Shown here: positions 7,045-61,494 of the stretch, piece by piece
Layout of the letters: each line of letters opens with the position of its first letter
Position numbering within the stretch: the stretch's first letter is position 1
Translations under genes and position numbers: made by a program
Source of the DNA: Octopus vulgaris
Taxonomy: Eukaryota
Assembly (NCBI GenBank): GCA_951406725.2
Contig: OX597825.1
Span: 78,864,001-78,928,000, forward strand
Direction of reading: 5' to 3'
DNA length: 64,000 bases
Notes under the pieces: generated by a model
What the model saw: only the letters and a program-made list of their open reading frames with translations
Told to the model about the DNA's origin: nothing
The model's database searches: none

Positions 7045-7910
7045 AAATCTTGTTTCAGTTATTGGACTGTGGCCACGCTGGGGCACTTTCCTTGGAAGGT
7101 TTAGTCGAACAAATCGATCCAGAATTTGAATTTTTATTTTTAAGCCTGACTACTTATTCTGTCAGGCTTTTTTTTGCCGAACCACTAAGTCACGGAGACG
7201 TAAACAAACCAACCCCGGTTGTCAAGCGATGGTGGTGGTGGACACGGACACACACACACACAGAATAGGTTTCTTTCAGTTTCTGTCTACCAAATCTACT
7301 CACAAGACTTTGGTCATACTGGAGCTATTGTAGAAGAGTCTTACCCACGGTGCTGCGCAGTGGGACTGAACCCAAGACCACATGGTTGGGAAGCAAGTTT
7401 CTTATCCTCACAGCCACGCCTACATCCATTCTTCAAATTCTTCACAAACGTCTGGTGCAAATCCATTGTTGACGTCCCCCTCGCTGCCTTCTTTACATTC
7501 GTCTTTCTTCCATGCCCCTCCCGCTGAACATAATATTCTTTCCCAACCACATAGTTCTAGGTTCAGTCCCACTGCATAGCACCTCGGGCATGTGCCTTCT
7601 AGCGTATCCTTGGGCTGACCAATGCCTTTACGAGACGATTTGATAAACAGAAACTGTGAGAAGCCTATCGAGTGTGTGTGTTTGTGTATATCGAAGTGTC
7701 TATTCGTTTATCACCGCTTGACAACCGGTGCTGGTTTGTTTACGTCCATGTAACTTAGCAGTTCAGCAAAAGGGCCTGAGGGACTAAGTATCAGACTTTA
7801 AAAAACAAAATAATTACCGGGGTCGATTTGTTTGACTAAATAAACCCTTCAAGATGGTGTTCCAGTATGGCCACAGCCCAATGACAGAAACAAGCAAGAG
7901 CAAAAAAGGA
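7045..7910. mobile_element. Two SINE A copies in opposite orientation (about 7045-7420 minus, about 7540-7910 plus)
   Basis: Both align by eye to the 569-1078 copy. Confidence 0.75.
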
Positions 7911-14600: not shown

Positions 14601-15039
14601 ATACATGCACACTGACATTACACATCCAGCAGAGATATATCTATGACGGGCTTCCTTCAGTTTCCGTCTACCAGATCCACTCGCAAGGCTTTGGTCAGAC
14701 TGAGGCGATAGTAGAAGACACTTGCCCGAGGTGCCATGCAGTGGGACTGAACCTGGAACCATGTGCTTGGGAAGCAAACTTCTAACCACACATCCATGGC
14801 CATGGACTTCTTTTTTTATGATGGTAGGTGTATATTCATATGGTCATCTTTGCAAAGATGCATTGTGACTGCCTGAGGTACAGTCTCCAGTTCACTGCTT
14901 TGACTGCGCTCACTCTGTCAGCTGTGTTTGTTGTCATCTGGTGATTGTGTTCACCAGATGTTTACTGTCTCAGTTCACTATTCAGTATATGTTTACTTCT
15001 GTATTTCATTAGTTCACCAGTTGTTTACAGCCAAAGTAC

Positions 15040-15525
15040 AGTAGTTCACTACATGTTTCTTGCTACATTTCTATTATTCATTACATGTTCACTACTACAT
15101 TGGGAAGTTCATTACATGTTCACTGCTATATTGGGAAGTTCATTACATGTTCACTGCTACATTGGGAAATTCACTACATGTTCACTGCTACATTAGGAAA
15201 TTCACTACATGTTCACTGCTATATTGGGAAGTTCATTACATGTTCACTGCTACATTGGGAAATTCACTACATGTTCACTGCTACATTAGGAAATTCACTA
15301 CATGTTCACTGCTATATTGGGAAGTTCATTACATGTTCACTGCTACATTGGGAAATTCACTACATGTTCACTGGGAAATTCACTACATGTTCACTGCTAT
15401 ATTGGGAAGTTCATTACATGTTCACTGCTACATTGGGAAATTCACTATATGTTCACTGCTACATTAGGAAATTCACTACATGTTCACTGCTATTTTGGGA
15501 AGTTCACTACATGTTCACTGTTACT
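15040..15525. repeat. 31-bp minisatellite, about 15 units, with 93-bp higher-order structure
   Basis: Unit catgttcactgctacattgggaaattcacta; the three overlapping ORFs cycle through the same 31-aa pattern. Degenerate units extend to about 14945 and 15700. Confidence 0.95.
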
Positions 15526-16659
15526 GCAGTGCATCTGCTACATGCTCTCCGTCACATTGGAGCATTGACTACATGTTTGTTACTACATTAAGACACCTGC
15601 TACATACTTGTTCCATCACCAACAAGTGTTCACTATGTTAGCTGCTACATGTGGCCTTCTGCTCCATGTTCACTGTCACACTGGGATATTTGCTACTGGC
15701 TAAGAAGTTTGCTTCCAAGCACATGATTTCCAGGTTCAGTTCCACTCTGTGGCCCCCTTGGACAAGTGTCTTCTATTATAACCCTGAGCCAACCTAAGCC
15801 TTATGAGTTGATCTCGGAGATGGAAACTAAAAGAAGCCTGTCATGGGTGTGTGTGATTGTGTTTCTGTTTCCTAGTCTTGATGTTGCATGATTGTCATAA
15901 AATGAGTGTCACCATCATATTATCAGTGTCCTTTATTTCCAGTCTCCTGTGAAAATAAGAAATGGTTAAAGGTTGGCAACAGAAAGGGCATCCATTGAAA
16001 ATCTTCAATGAATTCCATCTAACCCATGCTTGCATGGAAAACTGGATGTTAAATGATAATAACGAAGTTCCATATATCAGTTCTTCCTGACCTTTTTTTT
16101 TTTTTGTTTTTTGCTTCATGGGACAGTTTCATGCAAGACAATTTTTCCATTGTCTGGGGTTGAAGTGTATGATACATAATTTAATCCTTACATCTTTGCC
16201 AGTGCTGCTGGACTGGCCCTCGTGCTGGTGGCACGTAAAAGCACCCACTACACTCTCGGAGTGGTTGGCGTTAGGAAGGGCATCTAGCTGTAGAAACTTT
16301 GTCAGATCAGATTGAGCCTGGTACGGCCTTCTGGCTCACCATTCCTCACTCAAACCGTCCAACCCATGCCAGCATGGAAAGCGGACGTTAAACGACAATG
16401 ATGATGATGATGATCTTGTTGGCTCATTCCTCAAGTCTGAGAACTGATCTCTTCTCTTGGATGAATATTTGGACTATTAATGCCAACAGCACATGTAGCA
16501 AACAAGGCTAATCCTTGCATTGGCCACATGTGAATGTTGGAGCCGGTTCTGGTCATTGCTTTCTGGCCTCCCATTGTCTCTCCTCTCCTTTTTCATTCTT
16601 TCTCTTTCAAACAATATTATGTTTTTGTTTATATTTTGTCAGTGGCCAAGACACAGTTG

Positions 16660-16864: not shown

Positions 16865-16910
<46 letters not shown>

Positions 16911-17083
16911 GCATATATACGACGGGCTTCTTTCAGTTCCCGTCTACCAAATCCACTCACAAGGCTTTGGTCGACCCGAGGGTATAGTAGAGGACACTTG
17001 CCCAAGGTGTCATGCAGTGGGACTGAACCCAGGACCATGTGGTTGGTAAACAAGCTACTTACCACACAGCCACTCCTACGCCT
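16660..17083 (-). mobile_element. SINE A, full length
   Basis: Reverse complement of family A, with an internal tandem duplication of about 31 bp at 16805-16864. Confidence 0.85.
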
Positions 17084-18043
17084 ATACATATAATGCACAT
17101 ATAACACAAAAACACCCTGCAGACTGTGATAGTAAATAAAACAGAAATAACAGTTAAAAATTTATTCTTTCTATGCAGCCAGGTACCAAATGACCTGTGG
17201 TCTGGTGTGTGGGGACACCTGCCTTAGATGTCTCAAACAAACTGGATGAAAGTTGTTCCCTTGGATAAAAGAAAGCTGTTCCAATCAATCAAAACATTGT
17301 GATTGATAAAGAGTAAGCAAACATCTCGGGTGGGGGTGAAGCATGAATTTTCCTCAGCTTAAAAGTCGTTTAGGAAGAAGGTTGGTTTTGCTGATGCAGC
17401 ACAAAGTGTTTTAATGCTTGTAAGCGAAAGAATTGTGCCAGTCACAGCTTCTTATATCCCGGCAACTTGATGCACGTCTTAGAAGATTAAGTTTCAAATG
17501 TTTTTTTTTTTTGGTTTGACTTTTTGTCTATTCCAATACATTCATGTGTGTGTGTGTGTGTGTATGTGGTCACTTTTACGTCTATTTTGTGATGTTATGG
17601 GTTGGCCCCACTTTATCCGGCAGACCAACAGAGAATATAGTCTATCTTATTGGGTAGGTTAGGTCTTTTTGGCATGCATCTGCACACACAGACACATGCA
17701 AATGTGCATGTGTGCAGATGCATACAGCCAAGTGGCTAAGAAATGGGTTTTGCGAGCATGAGGTTTATGAATTATGTGCATAGCATATTGTTTACATTGT
17801 TCTAATTGAAGCGTCTTGTGTAACATGAAAACTGTAACTAGCAGGACTTTATTTCAAGTCCTAAGTGCAGGCGTGGTTAAGAATCTGGTTTCATTTGTGG
17901 TTTCAGGTTTTGTCTCGTTGCACAGCACTTTCAGCTGGTGTCTTCTACTGTAGCCCTGGACCAACTAAATGCTTGTAAGTGAATAGAAATTGAAAGAAAC
18001 CAGTCATACACGTGTGTATGTGTGTGTGTGACTGTTTGTATTC

Positions 18044-20255: not shown

Positions 20256-21077
20256 AGGTGGTCCCCAGTGGGGTCAAAATTAGGACACTGTGGTTATGAA
20301 GTGAATTTCTCAATCATGCACCATATGACAGAATCATTATCATTGTTTTAATGTCCATCTTTCCATACTTGCATAGATCAGATGGAATTTGTTGGTACGG
20401 ATTTTCTGTGGCTGGATGCCCTTCCTGTCACCAACCCTCTTCTGTTTCCAAGTAAGGTAATATTTCCCCCATGGCCAGACATGTGATTTATGGAAGACTG
20501 GTTTACAATCAATATCAGGACATGGATATGTTCACACACACACACACACACACACAGCAAGCTTCTTTCAGTTCTTATCAACTAAATTTATTCACAAGGC
20601 TTTGGTCAGCCCAGGGCTATAGTAGAAGGGACTTGCCCAAGATGTCATGTAGGACTGAACCTGACACTATATGAAGACTATTCCGAAGGTAGTGAGCTGG
20701 CAGAAAAGTTAGCACACCGGGCGAAATGCTTAGCGGAATTTCGTCTGTCTTTACATTCTGAGTTCAAATTCCGCCAAGGTCAACTTTGCCTTTCATCCTT
20801 TCGGGGTCGATAAATTAAGTAACAGTTGTGTACTGGGGTTAATCTAATTGACTGGCCCCCTCCACAAAAATTTTGGGCCTTGTGCCTCGAGTAGAAAAGA
20901 ATATATATACACATACATAATCACAAACAGTCATATACAAATGTATATACACACACATACACACACACACACACACGCATGCATACATACAATATAACAA
21001 AGGAAAAAACAATTCCTTCAAATTCCTTTAAAAGGTCACATGACATATCTAAATCTCTAGAATTAGGAGTATATTAA

Positions 21078-28372: not shown

Positions 28373-28824
28373 TAAGGTGGTGTGCTGACAGAATCATTAG
28401 CACGCTGGACAAGATGCTCAGCGGTGTTTCAGTTGTCACTATGTTCTGAGTTGAAATTCCGCCGAGGTTGACTTTGCCTTTTATCTTTTCGGGGTCAATA
28501 AATTAAGTAGCAGTAAAACACTGGGGGTCAATATAATCAGCTAGTCCCATTCCCATTCCCACCCCCCCCCAAAAAAAATTTCAGGCCTTGTGCTTTCAAT
28601 AGAAAGGATTATTATTGAAGATGGTGAGGTGGCAGAATCTTTTGCACACCGGGCGAAGTGCTTAGTGGTGTTTCGTCCATCTTTATGTTCTGAGTTGAAA
28701 TTCCGCTGAGGTTGACTTTGCCTTTCATCCTTTCGGGGTCAGTAAATTAAGTACCAGTGAAACACTGGGGTCAATGTAATTGACTGCTCCCCTTCCCCAA
28801 AATTTCAGGCCTTTAGTAGGAAGG

Positions 28825-28856
<32 letters not shown>

Positions 28857-29070
28857 AGCAGCATGTTTGCAGAATCATTAGCAGACCAAGCAAAATGCTC
28901 AGCGGCATTTCATCCATCTTTACATTCTGAGTTCAAATTCTGCTGCTGTCAACTTCGCCTTTCATCCTTTCTGGGTCAATAAAATAAGTACCAGTTATGC
29001 ACTGGGGTCGATGTGATTGACTTGATCCCTCCCCCAAAATTGCTGACCTTGTTCCCAGATTTGAAACCAA
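28373..29070 (+). mobile_element. Head-to-tail array of three SINE B copies separated by (ATT)n
   Basis: Repeated unit ggcagaatc.ttagc...gttctgagtt.aaattc.gc.gagg..gactttgcctttcatcctttcggggtc.ataaa.taagtaccag...ggccttgtgc. Confidence 0.85.
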
Positions 29071-37792: not shown

Positions 37793-38071
<279 letters not shown>

Positions 38072-39932
38072 TAAGTCCTTTCTTTTTCTCTTCCATGTTA
38101 TTATTTAAAAATTTTTTTGTCTTGTGTCAAAATTTGTGAACAATAGCATTGTTGGTTACAGGTTTCCAGTGAGCCAATCTCCAATTCAATACATTTCTGA
38201 AAAGGAGAATATGACAAGGGAGTCTTTGTAAGACAATACAGAACAATTATCACAAGGGGCTTTTGCTTGAAAAAAGCACTTGTTTTTCAGTTTTTCTTGT
38301 AAATGTTTACCTCTTTCATTTATAGGCATCAATAAAAGTACTCTGTATTCTGTGGTTCTTGAGAAATGATTCCAACAGACATAATTTGAATATATATAAA
38401 GCTGGGGTTCTGATAACCCTTGGGAGTGTTAAATGGCATTTCGGGGTATGCAACAAAAGTGTGAAAGTATATACTTTCTTGAAGTTATTTCTGAGAAGGA
38501 AATTATTAACTAATTCTAAGTAACTGTATTTTGTTGAGCAGCTTAAGCTCTTTATTATACTATATATGTAGATTTAAACCTTTAAGAGATTATAATCAAG
38601 GATTATCTCCTCCTTTCATCTGCAACAACATACTTGATGACCTTACTTGTTTTGGTTCCATGGAAAAACTCGCCCAGTACACCTGGGTGGGCATTATCAG
38701 ACTTAAGCAAAATAAGGACTGGGGTTGATTTGTTTGACTAAAACCCTCATGGCCCTGCCCAGCATGGGCGCAGTTCAATGATTGAAACTAATAAATGATT
38801 AAAGATGTGGGCCTCAGGAAGGGGTCAAGATGAGGAGGGAATAACATTGATGTTTATATTTACTTCTTCAGGAAAAGTCATTTGGAGGAGGTTTTCTCTT
38901 TCAATGATGAGGGGACCCCTTTGGTGCTCAGCCTGCTAGAAATAGCAGTAAGATATCCTTCAGATCAAACCCACCTCACTAAAAATGAAGGACATTATTG
39001 AGTAATGTTGTCCTAGATACATTGTGCTTGAAACCATAAGCTGGGGGTAGTCATGGTTGGCTTGCCTTTGATTGTAATGTTTTCAGTCAACAAAACTGTC
39101 GACCCAAATTAAGTTGTTTTATGACTTTATTTATTGCATATTCTCTCCTACACTACCAAACTCCATTCCTCCCTCCCCCCACAGCACAAACCTTCATTCC
39201 ACTGCCCCCACCCCACCCCCGACCCACATTGTCAAGTTTCAGTCCGCCCTTGCACATGACCAATCTTCACACACCCTCCTACATCACCAAACTTCACACC
39301 CCACCACTACCAAACATTATTCCCTCCCCCCAAGCTTGTTACACCAATCATTCCCTCTCTCTCTCTCTCTCTCCCTCCCTCCCTCGCCTCCCTCCCTCCC
39401 TCCAGCAGAACCTTCTTAACAGCTTTATAGGCCTATGAGCAAACCAATACATTGGGCCTTGTAGACCTTTTTTTCATTAACAGCAAGCTACAACATAGAT
39501 CTGAATTGGGCCTCTAGACCAGTGTGTCCTGCCTTAAGGTGGCCCTCTTCACCAGAGAATAAAACTATTTACATTTATTACAATGCAACTGTGTTGTTAT
39601 TTGATAGAATTGTTACAACAGCAGACACAAATGCCATCCAGTCTTTAGTTGTGGGCCTTTAGGCTCTCTAAGCCCAAATAATGCCAAAGCCAGATTCACT
39701 AGTTATCTCTTCCACACACTGTAAAAGAAATACCAGTCATATATTGACATTGGTGTAATCAACAGTTCTTGTCTTCTGATATTTCTGGCTTTCTGCCTTG
39801 TTAAGAAGTCTGCTCCACATGGTCACCATCAGTTATTGGCTATTCAGCCTGATTAATACATATTGATATTTATGTTTTTAATAATCAATAATTTTTGTTG
39901 CTTGTTTATATATATAATACACACACACACAC

Positions 39933-40135
39933 ATATTTGAAGAAAGATTTTCTTCAAAAGTTATTATTTGAAGAAGTCTTACATTAATCCATGCCATGTG
40001 TTTGGAAAATTGAACAATGGAAGCACACACAATATGAAAATTACATTCCAAAAAGTTCATGTTATTCTGTTTTCCAAAGGTTTTTTCAAAAAAAAAAATA
40101 GTTAATATCTTTTAAGAAAATCTTTCTTCAAATAT
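39933..40135. mobile_element. Small foldback/MITE-like element
   Basis: 22-bp perfect inverted repeat atatttgaagaaagattttctt / aagaaaatctttcttcaaatat, with further imperfect inner pairing. Confidence 0.55.
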
Positions 40136-40231
40136 TGCGACTATATCAAGTCCTTTTTGCAATATATATATATATATATATATGTCAAGAAAACAGAAAT
40201 AACTGTTTTTGTATATATGTATCTGTATATG

Positions 40232-40848
<617 letters not shown>

Positions 40849-40859
40849 TGTGTGTGCGC

Positions 40860-40924
<65 letters not shown>

Positions 40925-41303
40925 AATGAGATAGGGGTTGAAAATTCAACCCACCATGGGATAATATATATCCAATATACTGCTAGATAGGTACCCAACA
41001 AAAATTAATACATAGATGTTAGAAATTGTCAAGCAATCAGTTCATCTATTGTATTAAATGGGTAAGGGTAATAATATTACCGTAAATTAATACTACAAAA
41101 TTAGAGAATGGAGAAACATACTTAAATCAATAAAGCATCAACTATCCGATGATACTCAATCCATACTTTAATACACCATTACATAGGAGTAAAGGCAATA
41201 TATAAAATGAAATGAGATATACAGTAATAGTAAAAGTAAAAGTAAAAGTAAAAAGATAAAGAGATATAAGTAAAAAATTACAAATACAATATGCAAATAA
41301 ATC

Positions 41304-41419
41304 AAAACTGACAGCTGTTTCGGCAGTGAGGACAGTCATACCTCATTTAACCTATAAGCCATAAAGGCAGGTATAAATGAGGCATTAACAAAGATGCCCC
41401 ACGGCCTCTTCAGAGAATT
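41304..41419 (-). ncRNA. Type I hammerhead ribozyme motif (mirror copy)
   Basis: Reverse complement of 42131-42246 within the left arm of the inverted repeat (gacagctgtttcggc...gcctcttcagag). Confidence 0.65.
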
Positions 41420-41755
41420 AAATTAAATTTGTTATAATAGTGAAAAATATTATATAATCATATACATATAAATATAAAAATATAAAAAAGTAAAGTATAA
41501 AAACTTATACATCATAATGCTACACTTGTATAATATAATACATATTTGTACAAAAAGGAAGGTAACCAGAACAAAATAAAACAAAATATATAACAGTGTA
41601 TATATAATATTAATAAGTACCGATATCATACATATTTAGCTAATAGTTTTTTTTATAAAAAAAGGGGCTAACACACATAGTTATTTCGATCTTGGAAGGA
41701 TGGACTTGGTGATAACTTAACTGTATCTATTTTTATTATTTTTTATTATTATTAC

Positions 41756-41792
<37 letters not shown>

Positions 41793-42130
41793 AGTAATTT
41801 TTATTAACTTTTATAGCTTTAGAATTTTATGAACTGTACCACGGATTTAATTATTATTATTTTTCATCTCCATATGTGTTAGCCCCTTTTTTTATAAAAA
41901 AAACTATTAGCTAAATATGTATGATATCGGTACTTATTAATATTATATATACACTGTTATATATTTTGTTTTATTTTGTTCTGGTTACCTTCCTTTTTGT
42001 ACAAATATGTATTATATTATACAAGTGTAGCATTATGATGTATAAGTTTTTATACTTTACTTTTTTATATTTTTATATTTATATGTATATGATTATATAA
42101 TATTTTTCACTATTATAACAAATTTAATTT

Positions 42131-42246
42131 AATTCTCTGAAGAGGCCGTGGGGCATCTTTGTTAATGCCTCATTTATACCTGCCTTTATGGCTTATAGGT
42201 TAAATGAGGTATGACTGTCCTCACTGCCGAAACAGCTGTCAGTTTT
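42131..42246 (+). ncRNA. Type I hammerhead ribozyme motif with long stem II
   Basis: CTGAAGA at 42137-42143. Stem II is GGC.GTGGGG / CCTCAC.GCC with inner CCTCATTTA/TAAATGAGG, ACCT/AGGT and GCC/GGC pairings. GAAA at 42229-42232, minimal stem III C-AGCT-G with a palindromic loop, GTC cleavage triplet at 42238-42240. Stem I is weak (CT/AG, then mismatches). Confidence 0.65.
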
Positions 42247-42456
42247 GATTTATTTGCATATTGTATTTGTAATTTTTTACTTATATCTCTTTATCTTTTT
42301 ACTTTTACTTTTACTTTTACTATTACTGTATATCTCATTTCATTTTATATATTGCCTTTACTCCTATGTAATGGTGTATTAAAGTATGGATTGAGTATCA
42401 TCGGATAGTTGATGCTTTATTGATTTAAGTATGTTTCTCCATTCTCTAATTTTGTA

Positions 42457-42494
<38 letters not shown>

Positions 42495-42750
42495 TATATA
42501 CACACACACACTCATATATACATACATATGTATTCAGGGACATGTAATGCATTTCTTTTGTATGTATACACATACTCATCTGTACATGTGTATATATGTA
42601 TGAGTGTGTGTGTGTGTCTGTGCTCCTTGGCATATAAACTACTTTTATTATTTTATGTATGTATGAACATGTCTGTATATGCACAGTATTGAGTGGTTTT
42701 ATATTGAACATATAATTATTGATATATAATCTACTTTTATTTTATATATA

Positions 42751-42841
<91 letters not shown>

Positions 42842-43699
42842 TATATCATTGTTTTTGTTTTTTTCCTTCCTTCTTTTAACATCCACTTTTCCATGCCCCC
42901 CTGGGCCAGATGAAATTTGTTGAGGCAGATTCTCTATGGCTGGATGTCCCCTTCCTATCATCAATCCTCTCCCGTATCCATGTAAGGTGATGTTTCCCCA
43001 TGATTAGACATGATTTCATGGGAAATTGGAAAAGAAATATATATATCTTTTGGTTTGTTTAAGGTTTTGGAAAATTTGAAAATATATCGTTGCTATTATG
43101 CCAAAGTGTTGTAAGTCCAAAACATTGCTTTTTCAGAAAACAAAAAAAAATAGTTTCACCATTCCAGATCAAAACTGTTGTAGGACACTTTGACAATTTT
43201 AGATATTTTGGCATCTGAAGCAGCTGGAGATACGATAGTTTGACCAAAAGAACTGGCTATTGCAAGCAAAAAGAAATATTGAAAAAAAACATATTTGGCC
43301 AAATTTGGACATACGACACTTTAACATAATAGCAACAATAAGACCATCAACTATAAATGAATCTATAAATAAATACTAGATTGTAAAATATTGGTGGGGG
43401 TCACCTGTTCCTGTCTCGCCTTCTGCTATCATACTTTACTGTCTCTACATCTGGCACAACAAAGATTCATCTCCTTCAAAACTGCTCAGTGAAGAGCTCT
43501 TGTGTTATGAGGAAAACCGCAGCCATTGCACCCTGTAAAGTGGTTCGCATAAGGAAGGTCATGGTAAGAAAGTCAGAAACACTGACATCATAATCGCACA
43601 TCTAATTCAGTTGATTTACTGGTTGTGTGTGACATATTGTTCTTGCAGAACTGACTGAGGTGGGGGGGGGGGGTTAATCACTATTTACAACAGCAGCTG

Positions 43700-43808
43700 T
43701 AATAATAACAATAAAAATAATAACAATAATAAAAATAACAACAACAATAATAATAATAAAAATAATAACAACAACAATAATAATAACTATAACAATAATA
43801 ATAATAAA
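43700..43808. repeat. (AAT/AAC)n microsatellite
   Basis: Read directly from the sequence. Confidence 0.9.
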
Positions 43809-44269
43809 CTGTCATATTTATTGATGAATCAAAAATGTTCAATTATTATTGAATTGTAACGATGTTGATTCTAATTACATTTTCTCTTTGTCATCATCCT
43901 CACTTTTGTATTCATTAATTCATTAATGTCCTTATTATCCTCATTAAGTCTACATTTATCATCTTCATTATCAGGTGTACATTTACAATTATCATAATAA
44001 TTACAAAAACATAAACTCGACGACAATTATCATCTCTAAATCTGTATTTATTGTAATCATTATTGCCTCCATCTTGACTGTCTCTTAATGTTGTTGCATC
44101 TTTTATTATCATCACAAGTGAGCTGGCGGAACTGTTAGCATGCCAGACTAAATTCTTTGTGGCATTTCGCCTGCCTCTGTTCTCGGTTCAAATTCTGTTG
44201 AAGTCGGCTTTGCCTTTTATCCTTTTGGAGTTGATAAAATAAGTGTCAGTCAACTACTGTGGTGTTCAA

Positions 44270-44655
44270 CTCCTCTTTTTCTTGTTTCAGTCATTTGACT
44301 GTGGCCATGCTGGAGCACCGCCTTTAGTTGAGCAAATCGACCCCAGGACTTATTCTTTGTAAGCCCAGTACTTATTCTATCGGTCTCTTTTGCTGAACCG
44401 CTAAGTTATGGAGATGTAAACACTCCAGTATCGGTTGTCAAGCGATGTTGGTGGGACAAACAGAGACAAATACATACATACATATATATACACGAAGGGC
44501 TTCTTTCAGTTTCCGTCTACCAAATCCACTCACAAGGCTTTGGTCAGCCCGAGACTACAGTAGAAGACACTTGCCCAAGGTGCCATGCAGTGGGACTGAA
44601 CCCGGAACCATGTGGTTCGTAAGCAAGCTACTTACCACACAGCCACTCCTACACC
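44270..44655 (-). mobile_element. SINE A, full length
   Basis: Near-consensus reverse-complement copy. Confidence 0.85.
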
Positions 44656-45693
44656 TATCATAAAATTGCGGTTTCAATTCCTGAGCCAGGCAACACATTT
44701 GTGTTCTTGAGCAAGACACTTCATTTCATGTTGCTCCAGTCCAGGCAGCTGGCAAAAATGAGTTAACCCTGCAATGGACCAGTGCCCCATCCAGGTGGGG
44801 AATTTATAGGGTATGGAAACTGGGAAACTGGCCCTTATGAGTTGATATGACTTGAGAAGGAAGGAAGAAAATGCTGGAGTCAGTAAAACTCCCCTCAAAA
44901 AACTGTTGGCCCTGTGCCAAAATTTGAAACCATTATTACAAGTGAAATGCATAGAAATTGTAGGGATTTCACTGGTGAACACTGGGGTTGGTGGCTTTAG
45001 TTGTCTGTTATTGTGATGATGATGACAATGGCAAAGGACAAGACAGAGAGAGGGAGAGAAAGTTGTGATGGGTATTAGCTGAGGTGGTAACTGAAAGATA
45101 GGGGACGGAGGACCAAGAAAAGCATCGACTGATCAATGCAAACATGTAATTGCACACACACACACACACACACGCACATGAATGTATACAGGCATTCCGA
45201 TAGTTTGTTGTGGTTTTTGTCAGAAGGAAGGAGTTGACAGCAAACAATTTATTTTGTTAACTGAATTAAAAGAAAAAAAATGCCAATTACAATAAATTGC
45301 ATGTACTTTAGTGTGAGTGATCTTCGTCACTGTCGTAACCACCACCAACAGCTGTTACAACAAATAAGCACTACCACTACCATTATTTCGTCATTTTCCT
45401 CTGGCTGTCTCCTCTCTCTCTCTCTTTCTTTCTCTCTCTCTCTCTCTTTCCTTCTCTCTCTCTCTTTCTTCCCCCTCTCTCAAGTTCCTTCCTTTAGTGT
45501 GTGGCACGAAAGGTAAGTAAGAACATAGTATTGTGTTAACATACACCTTAGACATCTTCATCATTTAATTACTTTACCTGTCAGTCCTCATCCCGTCAGT
45601 CTTCGTCTGTTGTAATCACACCCATCATGTGTCTCTCTCTCTCTCTCTCTCTCTGATTTCATTCAACTAATTTCCTGTCTTCTTCTGTTTCAG

Positions 45694-51237: not shown

Positions 51238-51875
51238 GGCAACGTGGCAAGCTGGCAGAATCGTTAGCGCACTGGACAAAATGCTTAACGGTATTTTGCC
51301 CACCGCTATGTTCTGAGTTCAAATTCCGCCGAGGTCGACTTTGCCTTTCATCCTTTCGAGGTCGATTAAATAAGTACCAGTTACGCACTGGGGTTGATAT
51401 AATCGACTTAATCCATTTGTTTGTCCTTTCTGTGTTTAGCCCCTTGTGGGTAGTAAAGAAATAGGTATTTCGTCTGCCACTACATTCTGAGTTAAAATTC
51501 TACCAAGGTCTACTTTGCCTTTCATCCTTTTGGGGTCGATGAATTAAGTACTAGTTGTGTACTAGGATCAATCTAATCGATTGGTCCCCTCCCGCAAAAT
51601 TTCAGGCCTTCTGCGTAGAGTAGAAAAGATTATTAATGTTAATTATGATGAGGCAGCAAGGTGGCAGAATTGTTAGCACACTGGGCAAAATGCTTAGCAG
51701 TATTTCGTTTGCCACTACAGTCTGAGTTCAAATTCCACTGAGGTTGACTTTTCCTTTCATTCTTTCGGGGTGGGAGGATTAAATAAGTACCAGTTATGCG
51801 CTGGGGTTAATGTAATCGACTTAATCCCTTCCCCCAAATTTGAGGCCTTGTGCTTCCAGTAGAAAGCATTATCAA
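51238..51875 (+). mobile_element. SINE B cluster (about three units)
   Basis: Same unit as 28373-29070, head-to-tail. Confidence 0.85.
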
Positions 51876-60244: not shown

Positions 60245-60725
60245 TGTGTGTACACATGTCCTCAGCAGTCATGGCCCATGTTTCACTGCCATGTAGCATG
60301 GCTGTTCGTACACATGCGTCATAGTCTACCTTTTACTCTGAGCAAGAGGCTGCCTTTTGTCACCAACAGAGGTAGGATCTCTCTGAACTTTGCCCAGGTT
60401 ATTCTTATTCTAGCAGCTACACTCTTAGAGCATCTACCCCTGCAACTGACTTGGTCTCCTAGATAACAGAAACTATCAATTACTTGAAGTTTTTCTCCCT
60501 GGAATGTGACAGAAGCTGTTCTCTGCACATTTTCAGTGTTTATAGCATCTGAGCATTTGCCACATACAAAAACTATCTTCCCAGTTAGCCTCCCTTTGAT
60601 ATTGCTGCACCTCTTATGTGTGCAAAGCTTACACTGGGTACATCTTATGGAGTTTCTACCTACACCTTTTCTACAGATCAAGCAGGGCCATCTACCTGAA
60701 TGGTTTTGTGATTTGTCTGCCCTAT
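60245..60725 (-). mobile_element. RTE LINE reverse-transcriptase C-terminal fragment with an embedded PHD-like Cys/His finger
   Basis: WPCLICRKGVGRNSIRCTQCKLCTHKRCS...FVCGKC, then EKLQVIDSFCYLG...VAARIRITWAKFREILPLL...RVKGRL. An adjacent frame continues ACVRTAMLHGSETW. Confidence 0.85.
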
Positions 60726-61494
60726 GTATGTATATATGTGTGTGGCCTAGTGTTGCCACTCACGATCGCTAGACCATGGGTTCAATTGCCAGACTGGGAA
60801 ATTACCAATCCTTACTAATTTATGAGTAACAATCAAGATGGTCATTAATGAAGAGATTTTCTTTGGTCAGACAAAGCCTGGAAGCAGAATATCTCAAAAT
60901 CAAGTTTGTATAGCAACAACAGGTGTACTGGTAGAGACAGCAGAAGATCAAAGTAAATGCTTGTAACAAAAGTGACACAGGGGTACAAATATACGAAATC
61001 CAACATACCCATCATGACTATCCGTCTAATGAGGGTACATGCATCACAATCATATGTGCGCAGCATATTGATCTCATCAAGGTAAACAGCACAAGACCTT
61101 GCAGGTGGAGCTCAGAATTTTCTTCGGGTCAAGTAGCCCATCCCACTCAAATGGTTCCTGAATAAGGGTCGTTTAAGGGTGTTGAACAAAACACCCTTGT
61201 TTCCAGAGGTGAATTATTCAAACTTCAAAGAATTCCTCTCAACACATGGCTATGATGCTCCCCCACTACTTCTGCTCATGATCAAAGATGCATATATCAT
61301 CTGCCACTCAAGGACATGCTCAACTGGTTATGGTCAAGCAACTGACAAGCAAATCTGTGGTATTGAGCAGAATATTTGCTGTAGCCCATCTTTTATACCA
61401 AGACAAAATCTGTACATGATAACACTTCTAATCAGTTAAAGTCAGAAGCCAGGAGAGCCACTGCCTGGTACTGCATCAGGGCATTCAAATTATT

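Follow-up and report, generated by a model that had tools for sequence, protein, structure and literature searches.

How a perfect palindrome with a hammerhead ribozyme motif on each strand came to lie in an intron of Octopus vulgaris, and what would become of a ribozyme transcribed together with its own complement, are the questions that this locus raises. We analysed it within a window of 64 kb, by which we mean the whole stretch of DNA. With a probability of roughly 80%, the unit is a recent, 5'-truncated insertion of an Octopus Penelope-like element (PLE) in which a direct and an inverted copy lie head to head in a (TA)n tract. The initial annotation of this DNA had read the unit as a Penelope-like element that inserted very recently together with an inverted partner, and that proposal is supported by the architecture of the unit, the type of its hammerhead, the TA target and the multi-copy nature of the family. 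The features of the locus, in window coordinates, are as follows.

38071-45693, + strand: host intron of an Octopus SLC35E2 gene (triose-phosphate transporter family), from its GT..AG ends, in-frame join, Pfam TPT match, homologue and exon order.
40877-40919, no strand: left (TA)n run, alternating TA, likely part of the target site.
40920-41089, - strand: 3' extension of 170 bp, on the inverted copy only, tail-like, with predicted hairpins (z = -4.1).
41090-41675, - strand: left arm, an inverted, 5'-truncated copy of the 3' region of the element, 586/586 complementary.
41310-41413, - strand: hammerhead of the minus-strand copy, antisense to the host pre-mRNA, the mirror of the + copy.
41676-41874, + strand: spacer, the native upstream part of the + copy, from a contig of run X5 that passes from spacer to arm and contigs of runs X2 and X5 that exit at 41676.
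41718-41720, + strand: stop codon of a possible ORF end in the spacer, from the reading frame.
About 41728-41806, + strand: (TAT)n tract in the spacer, from the tract listing.
41875-42460, + strand: right arm, the direct copy, ending within the right TA run, from the arm alignment.
42137-42240, + strand: type I hammerhead, sense to the host pre-mRNA, from its core boxes and descriptor match.
42144-42228, + strand: stem II hairpin of 85 nt, closed by G10.1-C11.1 (-38.0 kcal/mol, z = -6.1).
42232-42239, + strand: palindromic stem III of 8 nt, without a stable monomer fold (dimer duplex -11.1 kcal/mol).
42458-42491, no strand: right (TA)n run, alternating TA.

The location in an SLC35E2-like intron, the perfect 586-bp arms around a 199-bp spacer and the position between (TA)n tracts had all been claimed beforehand, and all three were upheld. 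The intron starts with GT and ends with AG, its flanking exons are joined in frame and the host exons match Pfam TPT; one of them (83 aa) is 100% identical to a cluster named Octopus sinensis SLC35E2A, and the SLC35E2A exons are found in order on either side of the insertion. Self-alignment of the arms gave complementarity at 586 of 586 positions, with the spacer between them and the alternating TA runs outside. None of the other inverted pairs among the 1,607 in the window is as long or as well matched as the arm pair (596 nt at 99%), the runner-up being 195 nt at 87%. Viewed on the ribozyme strand, the unit consists of two copies pointing apart, head to head: the direct copy occupies 41676-42460 (+) and the inverted copy runs from 41675 to 40920 (-), reaching 170 bp past its arm where the plus-strand copy has no such extension. 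The extension has a predicted fold of -42.0 kcal/mol with several hairpins, its z-score being relative to shuffles, and recalls the stem-loop where PAc begins reverse transcription (PMC11167929). Its outer boundary lies inside the TA run and is uncertain by 1-2 bp, both ends of the insertion being set in TA runs. A self-search of the 64 kb found no third copy of the element. We rejected a reading of the insertion as a MITE or DNA transposon on the grounds of its unequal ends and of arms that face outward from the truncation point.

The surrounding window is rich in other repeats. Immediately upstream, an AT-rich segment of about 230 bp (40620-40850) with imperfect inverted ends of about 30 bp is MITE-like. 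It is bounded by a (TA)n(CA)n run and the mirrored (TG)n(TA)n run, and the insertion took the TA run on its right as left target run. SINE-like sequences of three families or more, each family with 8-24 copies that face either way, are spread across the window (for example 20685-20862, 28373-29031 and 51240-51826, and also 7226-7428, 16883-17085 and 44456-44658), and we take them to resemble octopus SINEs. A tandem array with a period of 31 bp and about 18 in-register copies listed occupies 14977-15698, and a 146-codon frame on the minus strand at 60322-60759, with a PHD finger (E 3.6e-4) and a DUF1677 match, is presumably a LINE fragment. The 64-kb window contains no tRNA genes.

Contigs of four public sequencing runs were compared with positions 40915-41905; X1 is a DNA run, and X2 and X5 are presumed, as a guess, to be RNA. 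Contigs pool all copies of the family and contig depth is not a true share of copies, and bins without contig cover coincide with repeats that the method skips and were left out of account. Part of the stretch is present in 20 of the 24 listed runs, from six studies, and the contigs of the two DNA runs, 1,364 and 558 in number, include many variants, which makes the element a multi-copy repeat family. The 170-bp extension is covered by contigs in all four runs, with an exact match of 147 nt in X2. In X2 and in X5, one contig departs from the window sequence at 41676, and the two share the 30 letters listed out of at least 255 beyond that point; this identifies 41676 as the putative 5' truncation point and the spacer as native sequence; as these contigs run at least 255 letters upstream of the spacer, the insertion would be a 5'-truncated piece of something longer. 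A contig of X5 also crosses from the spacer into the arm. An opposite-strand joint in X5 (41644 to 41905) was considered as proof of the palindrome and discarded, as it reflects only the native continuity of spacer and arm. The presumed RNA contigs carry on beyond 40919, which is what a start of reverse transcription within the RNA would lead one to expect (PMC11167929). There is a weak hint that the outer arm end recurs in the family, since 41092 is the first position of contigs in both X1 and X2, and a contig of X2 gives out at 41094, within a CA/TA microsatellite.

Two further observations concern variation within the family. Single X1 contigs skip 407 bases (41279-41687) and 79 bases (41598-41678), and each could mark a further head-to-head junction or a family copy with a deletion. 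At 41156, 41162, 41186, 41287 and 41332 the alleles of the window account for more of the contig depth in the presumed RNA run X2 than in X1, which hints weakly that the subfamily of the window is the expressed one.

A perfect palindrome invites the objection that it, or its perfection, is a product of assembly, arising from a fold-back read or from polishing that equalised the arms. The arms do have zero mismatches, assemblies are known to have difficulty with the inverted structures of PLEs (PMC8557442), and the insertion junction 41675|41676 is bridged by none of the 32 contig pieces listed (2,197 more unlisted). The flanks of the two arms differ, however, with 170 additional family bases on the left copy, and a single-strand fold-back, whether in the cell or in a read, is unable to add these bases to one arm, which argues against a simple fold-back. 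The spacer is native family sequence and the host exons are ordered across the site. Moreover, both arms carry the same minority alleles relative to the main X1 depth (41135, 41156, 41162, 41186, 41287 and 41392), not the family majority, and this sharing fits derivation from one source. A check of the junctions had been advised with the earlier claim of a perfect palindrome; the unequal flanks, native spacer, ordered exons and shared alleles came out in favour of a genuine structure, but the listed contigs did not supply a bridge. On balance we consider an assembly artefact very improbable.

The ribozyme motif is complete on both arms. In the + copy the boxes CTGAAGA (42137-42143), GAAA (42229-42232), CAGCTG (42233-42238) and TC (42239-42240) correspond, in hammerhead numbering, to C3-A9 at 42137-42143, G12-A14 at 42229-42231, A15.1 at 42232, U16.1 at 42239 and C17 at 42240. 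A descriptor that combines the core boxes, a closed stem II and a palindromic stem III matched just two sites in the window, this motif and its mirror (41413-41310 on the minus strand), in agreement with the initial annotation, which had a hammerhead on each arm. In local shuffles of the 64 kb, any descriptor match occurred in 41 of 1,000 and one with a palindrome of at least 6 nt in 10 of 1,000; a looser hammerhead descriptor matched in 11 of 100. An Rfam search had been recommended with that claim and missed the motif: the covariance models gave no hammerhead match in the window at gathering score, and only five weak unrelated matches at E up to 10. Among 40 listed of 75 variant rows, the DNA contigs show no change in the core boxes, and three substitutions fall in stem II, two of them G-U to G-C and one in the loop; the core is thus intact in the listed variants, but two-sided (covarying) changes in stem II are absent from them. 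Scans for the motif elsewhere were negative. An 18-base core motif found 43 loci in metagenomes, none like the element beyond the motif itself; CTGANGA lies upstream at two of the 43, but the fold of the octopus hammerhead is predicted for neither. Of two scans of viral sequence, one gave no match and the other a single chance match in a contig of 64% GC.

The motif resembles the type I hammerheads of metazoan PLEs described by Cervera and de la Pena in 2014 (PMC4209133) in its CUGANGA and GAAA boxes, in the G10.1-C11.1 pair, in a palindromic 15.2-16.2 suited to dimers, and in U-rich and AU-rich flanks as in the PLE consensus row. Its stem III, CGAA-ACAG..CTGT, equals that of Hydra-1_aMil, Penelope-1_SK and Penelope-2_SK (PMC8557442). 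Stem I has 2 bp beside the core and is then interrupted (-3.1 kcal/mol); in metazoan PLE hammerheads this helix has 4-5 bp, though the D. virilis variant shares the 2-bp length of the octopus motif (PMC4209133). Further departures lie in and beside stem II, which spans 85 nt in the octopus motif in contrast to about 7-8 bp in metazoan PLE hammerheads, and the extra nucleotide after A9 of the PLE minimal hammerhead is absent (PMC4209133), G42144 pairing directly with C42228 in the predicted fold (probability 0.28). With the helix lengths and this nucleotide both departing from the published form, we do not class the motif strictly as a PLE minimal hammerhead.

Membership of the PLEs is suggested by the layout and the ribozyme. 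The features present are a type I hammerhead in the 3' region, an inverted 5'-truncated copy joined at its 5' end, a TA target and a family with hundreds of variant contigs in each of two DNA runs; a bias to (TA)n appears in the runs on both sides and in the one further family end within the CA/TA run of X2. By these sequence features the element appears to behave as a PLE insertion. Published PLEs have an inverted 5' copy, a one-sided tail and a (TA)n bias (PMC8557442; PMC3846280), and a 2014 study described pairs of hammerheads that lie on opposite strands at a distance of 100-700 bp (PMC4209133). The octopus unit shares with this layout a 5'-truncated copy with an inverted 5'-truncated partner, hammerheads on both strands, an extension at one end, a (TA)n target and microhomology at the 5' junctions. 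The closest case listed is Penelope-13_HM of the Hydra clade, with a 5' inverted copy, a hammerhead per strand and a (TA)n target (PMC8557442). The differences are that the octopus unit carries no ORF, and that its extension measures 170 bp as against an optional tail of 30-40 bp at one end in the published elements (PMC8557442; PMC3846280).

No ORF for a reverse transcriptase or GIY-YIG endonuclease was found in the unit or in the contig sequence reached. A stop-free frame of 26 residues lies over the spacer. Read by eye, the 30 contig letters and the first 45 spacer bases form a stop-free frame of 24 codons with a P-x3-H-F-x2-H word that resembles the words of PLE endonucleases (PMC8557442). 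The putative endonuclease frame stops 13 codons past the second H, before the expected conserved E and N, and this early stop makes it too short for a whole endonuclease and a hint only. Five DNA words and one peptide word of the window gave no match in the accessible consensus text of Craig 2021 (PMC8557442), where Naiad_Ovul, Naiad_Obim, Naiad_Omin and Hydra-1_Obim were compared and line breaks or cut runs could hide a match. Naiad_Ovul, despite its 'HHR_half_core' note, was set aside as the source as it shares no word in that text. The O. vulgaris genome holds 190 PLE families that make up 6.83% of it, 31 of them recently active with 336 recently active insertions (PMC13282606), and the repeat library of that study may hold the family already.

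The initial annotation had called the insertion non-autonomous, and the donor could instead be a non-autonomous, hammerhead-bearing PLE derivative, its endonuclease shortened or its ORF largely lost, that borrows the protein of a PLE; the insertion layout would be unchanged, and this account differs from the preferred one in the donor only. The frame across 41676 does end early, an ATT-type tract and about 400 non-coding bases precede the hammerhead, and non-autonomous PLE derivatives with type I hammerheads have been described (bioRxiv 10.64898/2026.07.22.740005). Contigs from two runs nevertheless hold at least 255 more letters upstream, and the unit lacks the tandem array that defines the non-LTR retrozymes of that preprint, in which two or more same-strand units, each with a hammerhead, are arranged head to tail. 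Although it resembles animal non-LTR retrozymes in being non-coding and PLE-derived with a type I hammerhead, the octopus unit is head to head with one hammerhead per strand; as tandem units are absent from the window, we did not adopt a retrozyme identity. A non-autonomous donor is possible, though we think it unlikely.

For the insertion of a 5'-truncated Octopus PLE as two head-to-head copies, the structure suggests a route. The endonuclease of the element would nick both strands of the TA run, and each nick would prime cDNA on RNA of the element. Synthesis would begin at one or the other of two internal points separated by 170 nt, and the cDNAs would then be joined by their 3' ends through short, imperfect microhomology at 41675|41676. 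The arms would be identical through being copied from one source subfamily at one time. When the run-on of the inverted arm was aligned by eye with the native sequence across the spacer start, 8 of 9 letters matched, with a 2-nt slip in the window. Two cDNAs from opposite nicks can yield unequal arm ends. [quoted passage not shown] For head-to-head units, Arkhipova (2013, PMC3846280) favours self-priming on an antisense template, which leaves the two-nick route with at least one competitor. The insertion itself is most likely ordinary for O. vulgaris and of a kind already known.

The initial annotation had gone on to suggest that the antisense arm could sequester the ribozyme as double-stranded RNA, and this holds as a fold prediction. 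In the fold predicted for 41090-42460, every one of the 586 arm bases is paired, as are the 13 core positions that were checked, and over the motif the arm-arm duplex is predicted at -274.5 kcal/mol compared with about -44 kcal/mol for the local fold. In the host pre-mRNA the arms would pair fully and bury the hammerhead. The ribozyme would be silent at this locus in any case, needing a second sense copy or a protein of the element. In the monomer, stems I and III have predicted pair probabilities of 0.11 and 0.001, metazoan PLE hammerheads assayed singly in vitro did not cleave (PMC4209133), and the PAc hammerhead needs protein and leaves no cut ends in RNA-seq (PMC11167929). By this analysis the hammerhead is likely silent in the host transcript anyway.

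The same annotation had seen in the two arms a built-in arrangement for tolerance, in which SLC35E2 pre-mRNA could be cleaved by the sense hammerhead and the insertion stays in the gene thanks to the antisense arm. This part was not supported. The completeness of the core, unchanged in the listed DNA variants, and the strength of the predicted duplex would suit such a role, as would the depletion of tandem hammerhead repeats in Xenopus introns (bioRxiv 10.64898/2026.07.22.740005); yet 42-44% of Xenopus retrozyme copies still overlap introns in the same preprint, the monomer junction barely forms, and single PLE hammerheads are uncut in vitro (PMC4209133) or, in PAc, protein-dependent (PMC11167929). 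An inverted copy is also routine in PLEs, and any head-to-head unit, in either orientation, automatically has the antisense arm first; selection, moreover, cannot be shown from one locus. An arrangement that lets the host tolerate an active ribozyme is thus hardly credible. As head-to-head geometry places the antisense arm first from either side, the 'anti-ribozyme' arrangement is likely a by-product of insertion and no device.

The long arm duplex would be a substrate for ADAR, and one of the two presumed RNA runs shows an excess of A-to-G changes. In X2, 31 of the 59 changed places are T-to-C on the + strand, which on the ribozyme strand reads A-to-G; in the DNA runs T-to-C accounts for 5 of 23 (p = 0.014 for the X2 excess) and 6 of 26 (p = 0.017); X2 and X5 are presumed RNA without matched DNA, and with contigs that pool family copies the changes are not tied to this locus. 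Of 13 T-to-C rows picked from the 40 listed, 11 stand at zero depth in either DNA run and the other two at no more than 3.2%. The changes include 42231 (A14), 42232 (A15.1) and 42234, at 45%, 63% and 32% of summed contig depth, and those at A14 and A15.1 are missing from both DNA runs. In X5 the T-to-C excess is absent (10 of 40, p = 1.0) and the three core sites are unchanged, and a test of ADAR neighbour preference in which 5' G was found at 0 of 12 sites against 6 of 53 in the background was not significant (p = 0.32). Labelling chemistry that yields T-to-C changes would be an alternative source of the X2 signal. Across 41187-41424 most of the X2 excess concerns the ribozyme strand (31 T-to-C against 9 A-to-G), yet the other strand is the richer in A (112 vs 53). 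This strand bias may reflect edited antisense reads that fell below the 80% cut-off, or editing of stem II alone.

The A-to-G changes of X2 are likely host editing. Neighbouring inverted repeats form duplexes that are edited by ADAR, a lizard Penelope has more than 40,000 edited sites and the editing rate in octopus is exceptionally high (Porath et al. 2017, PMC5625713). The hyper-edited repeats of that study involve inverted-repeat duplexes as here, with edits not placed in a ribozyme core in its accessible text. A14G is a standard inactivating change that abolishes hammerhead cleavage (PMC4889925). A search mostly outside subscription journals found no report of ADAR editing in the core of a hammerhead or PLE ribozyme. 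A further proposal, which we put forward tentatively and regard as doubtful, is that the inverted partner makes new PLE copies ADAR substrates and that A-to-I editing rewrites their own hammerhead core at A14 and A15.1.

The locus is of some value for the biology of PLEs in three respects. A hammerhead with an 85-nt stem II escapes both Rfam and PLE hammerhead descriptors that allowed a spacer of 7-17 nt (PMC8557442), and such motifs may therefore be under-counted. As a young, mutation-free copy, the insertion would record its own joining step and bears on how the inverted repeats of PLEs form. If the core A-to-G changes are ADAR edits, the family offers a direct test of whether a retroelement ribozyme is silenced by editing; and if the proposal is true, a ribozyme carried by a retroelement, in this case a long-stem form overlooked by present models, would be switched off by host editing.
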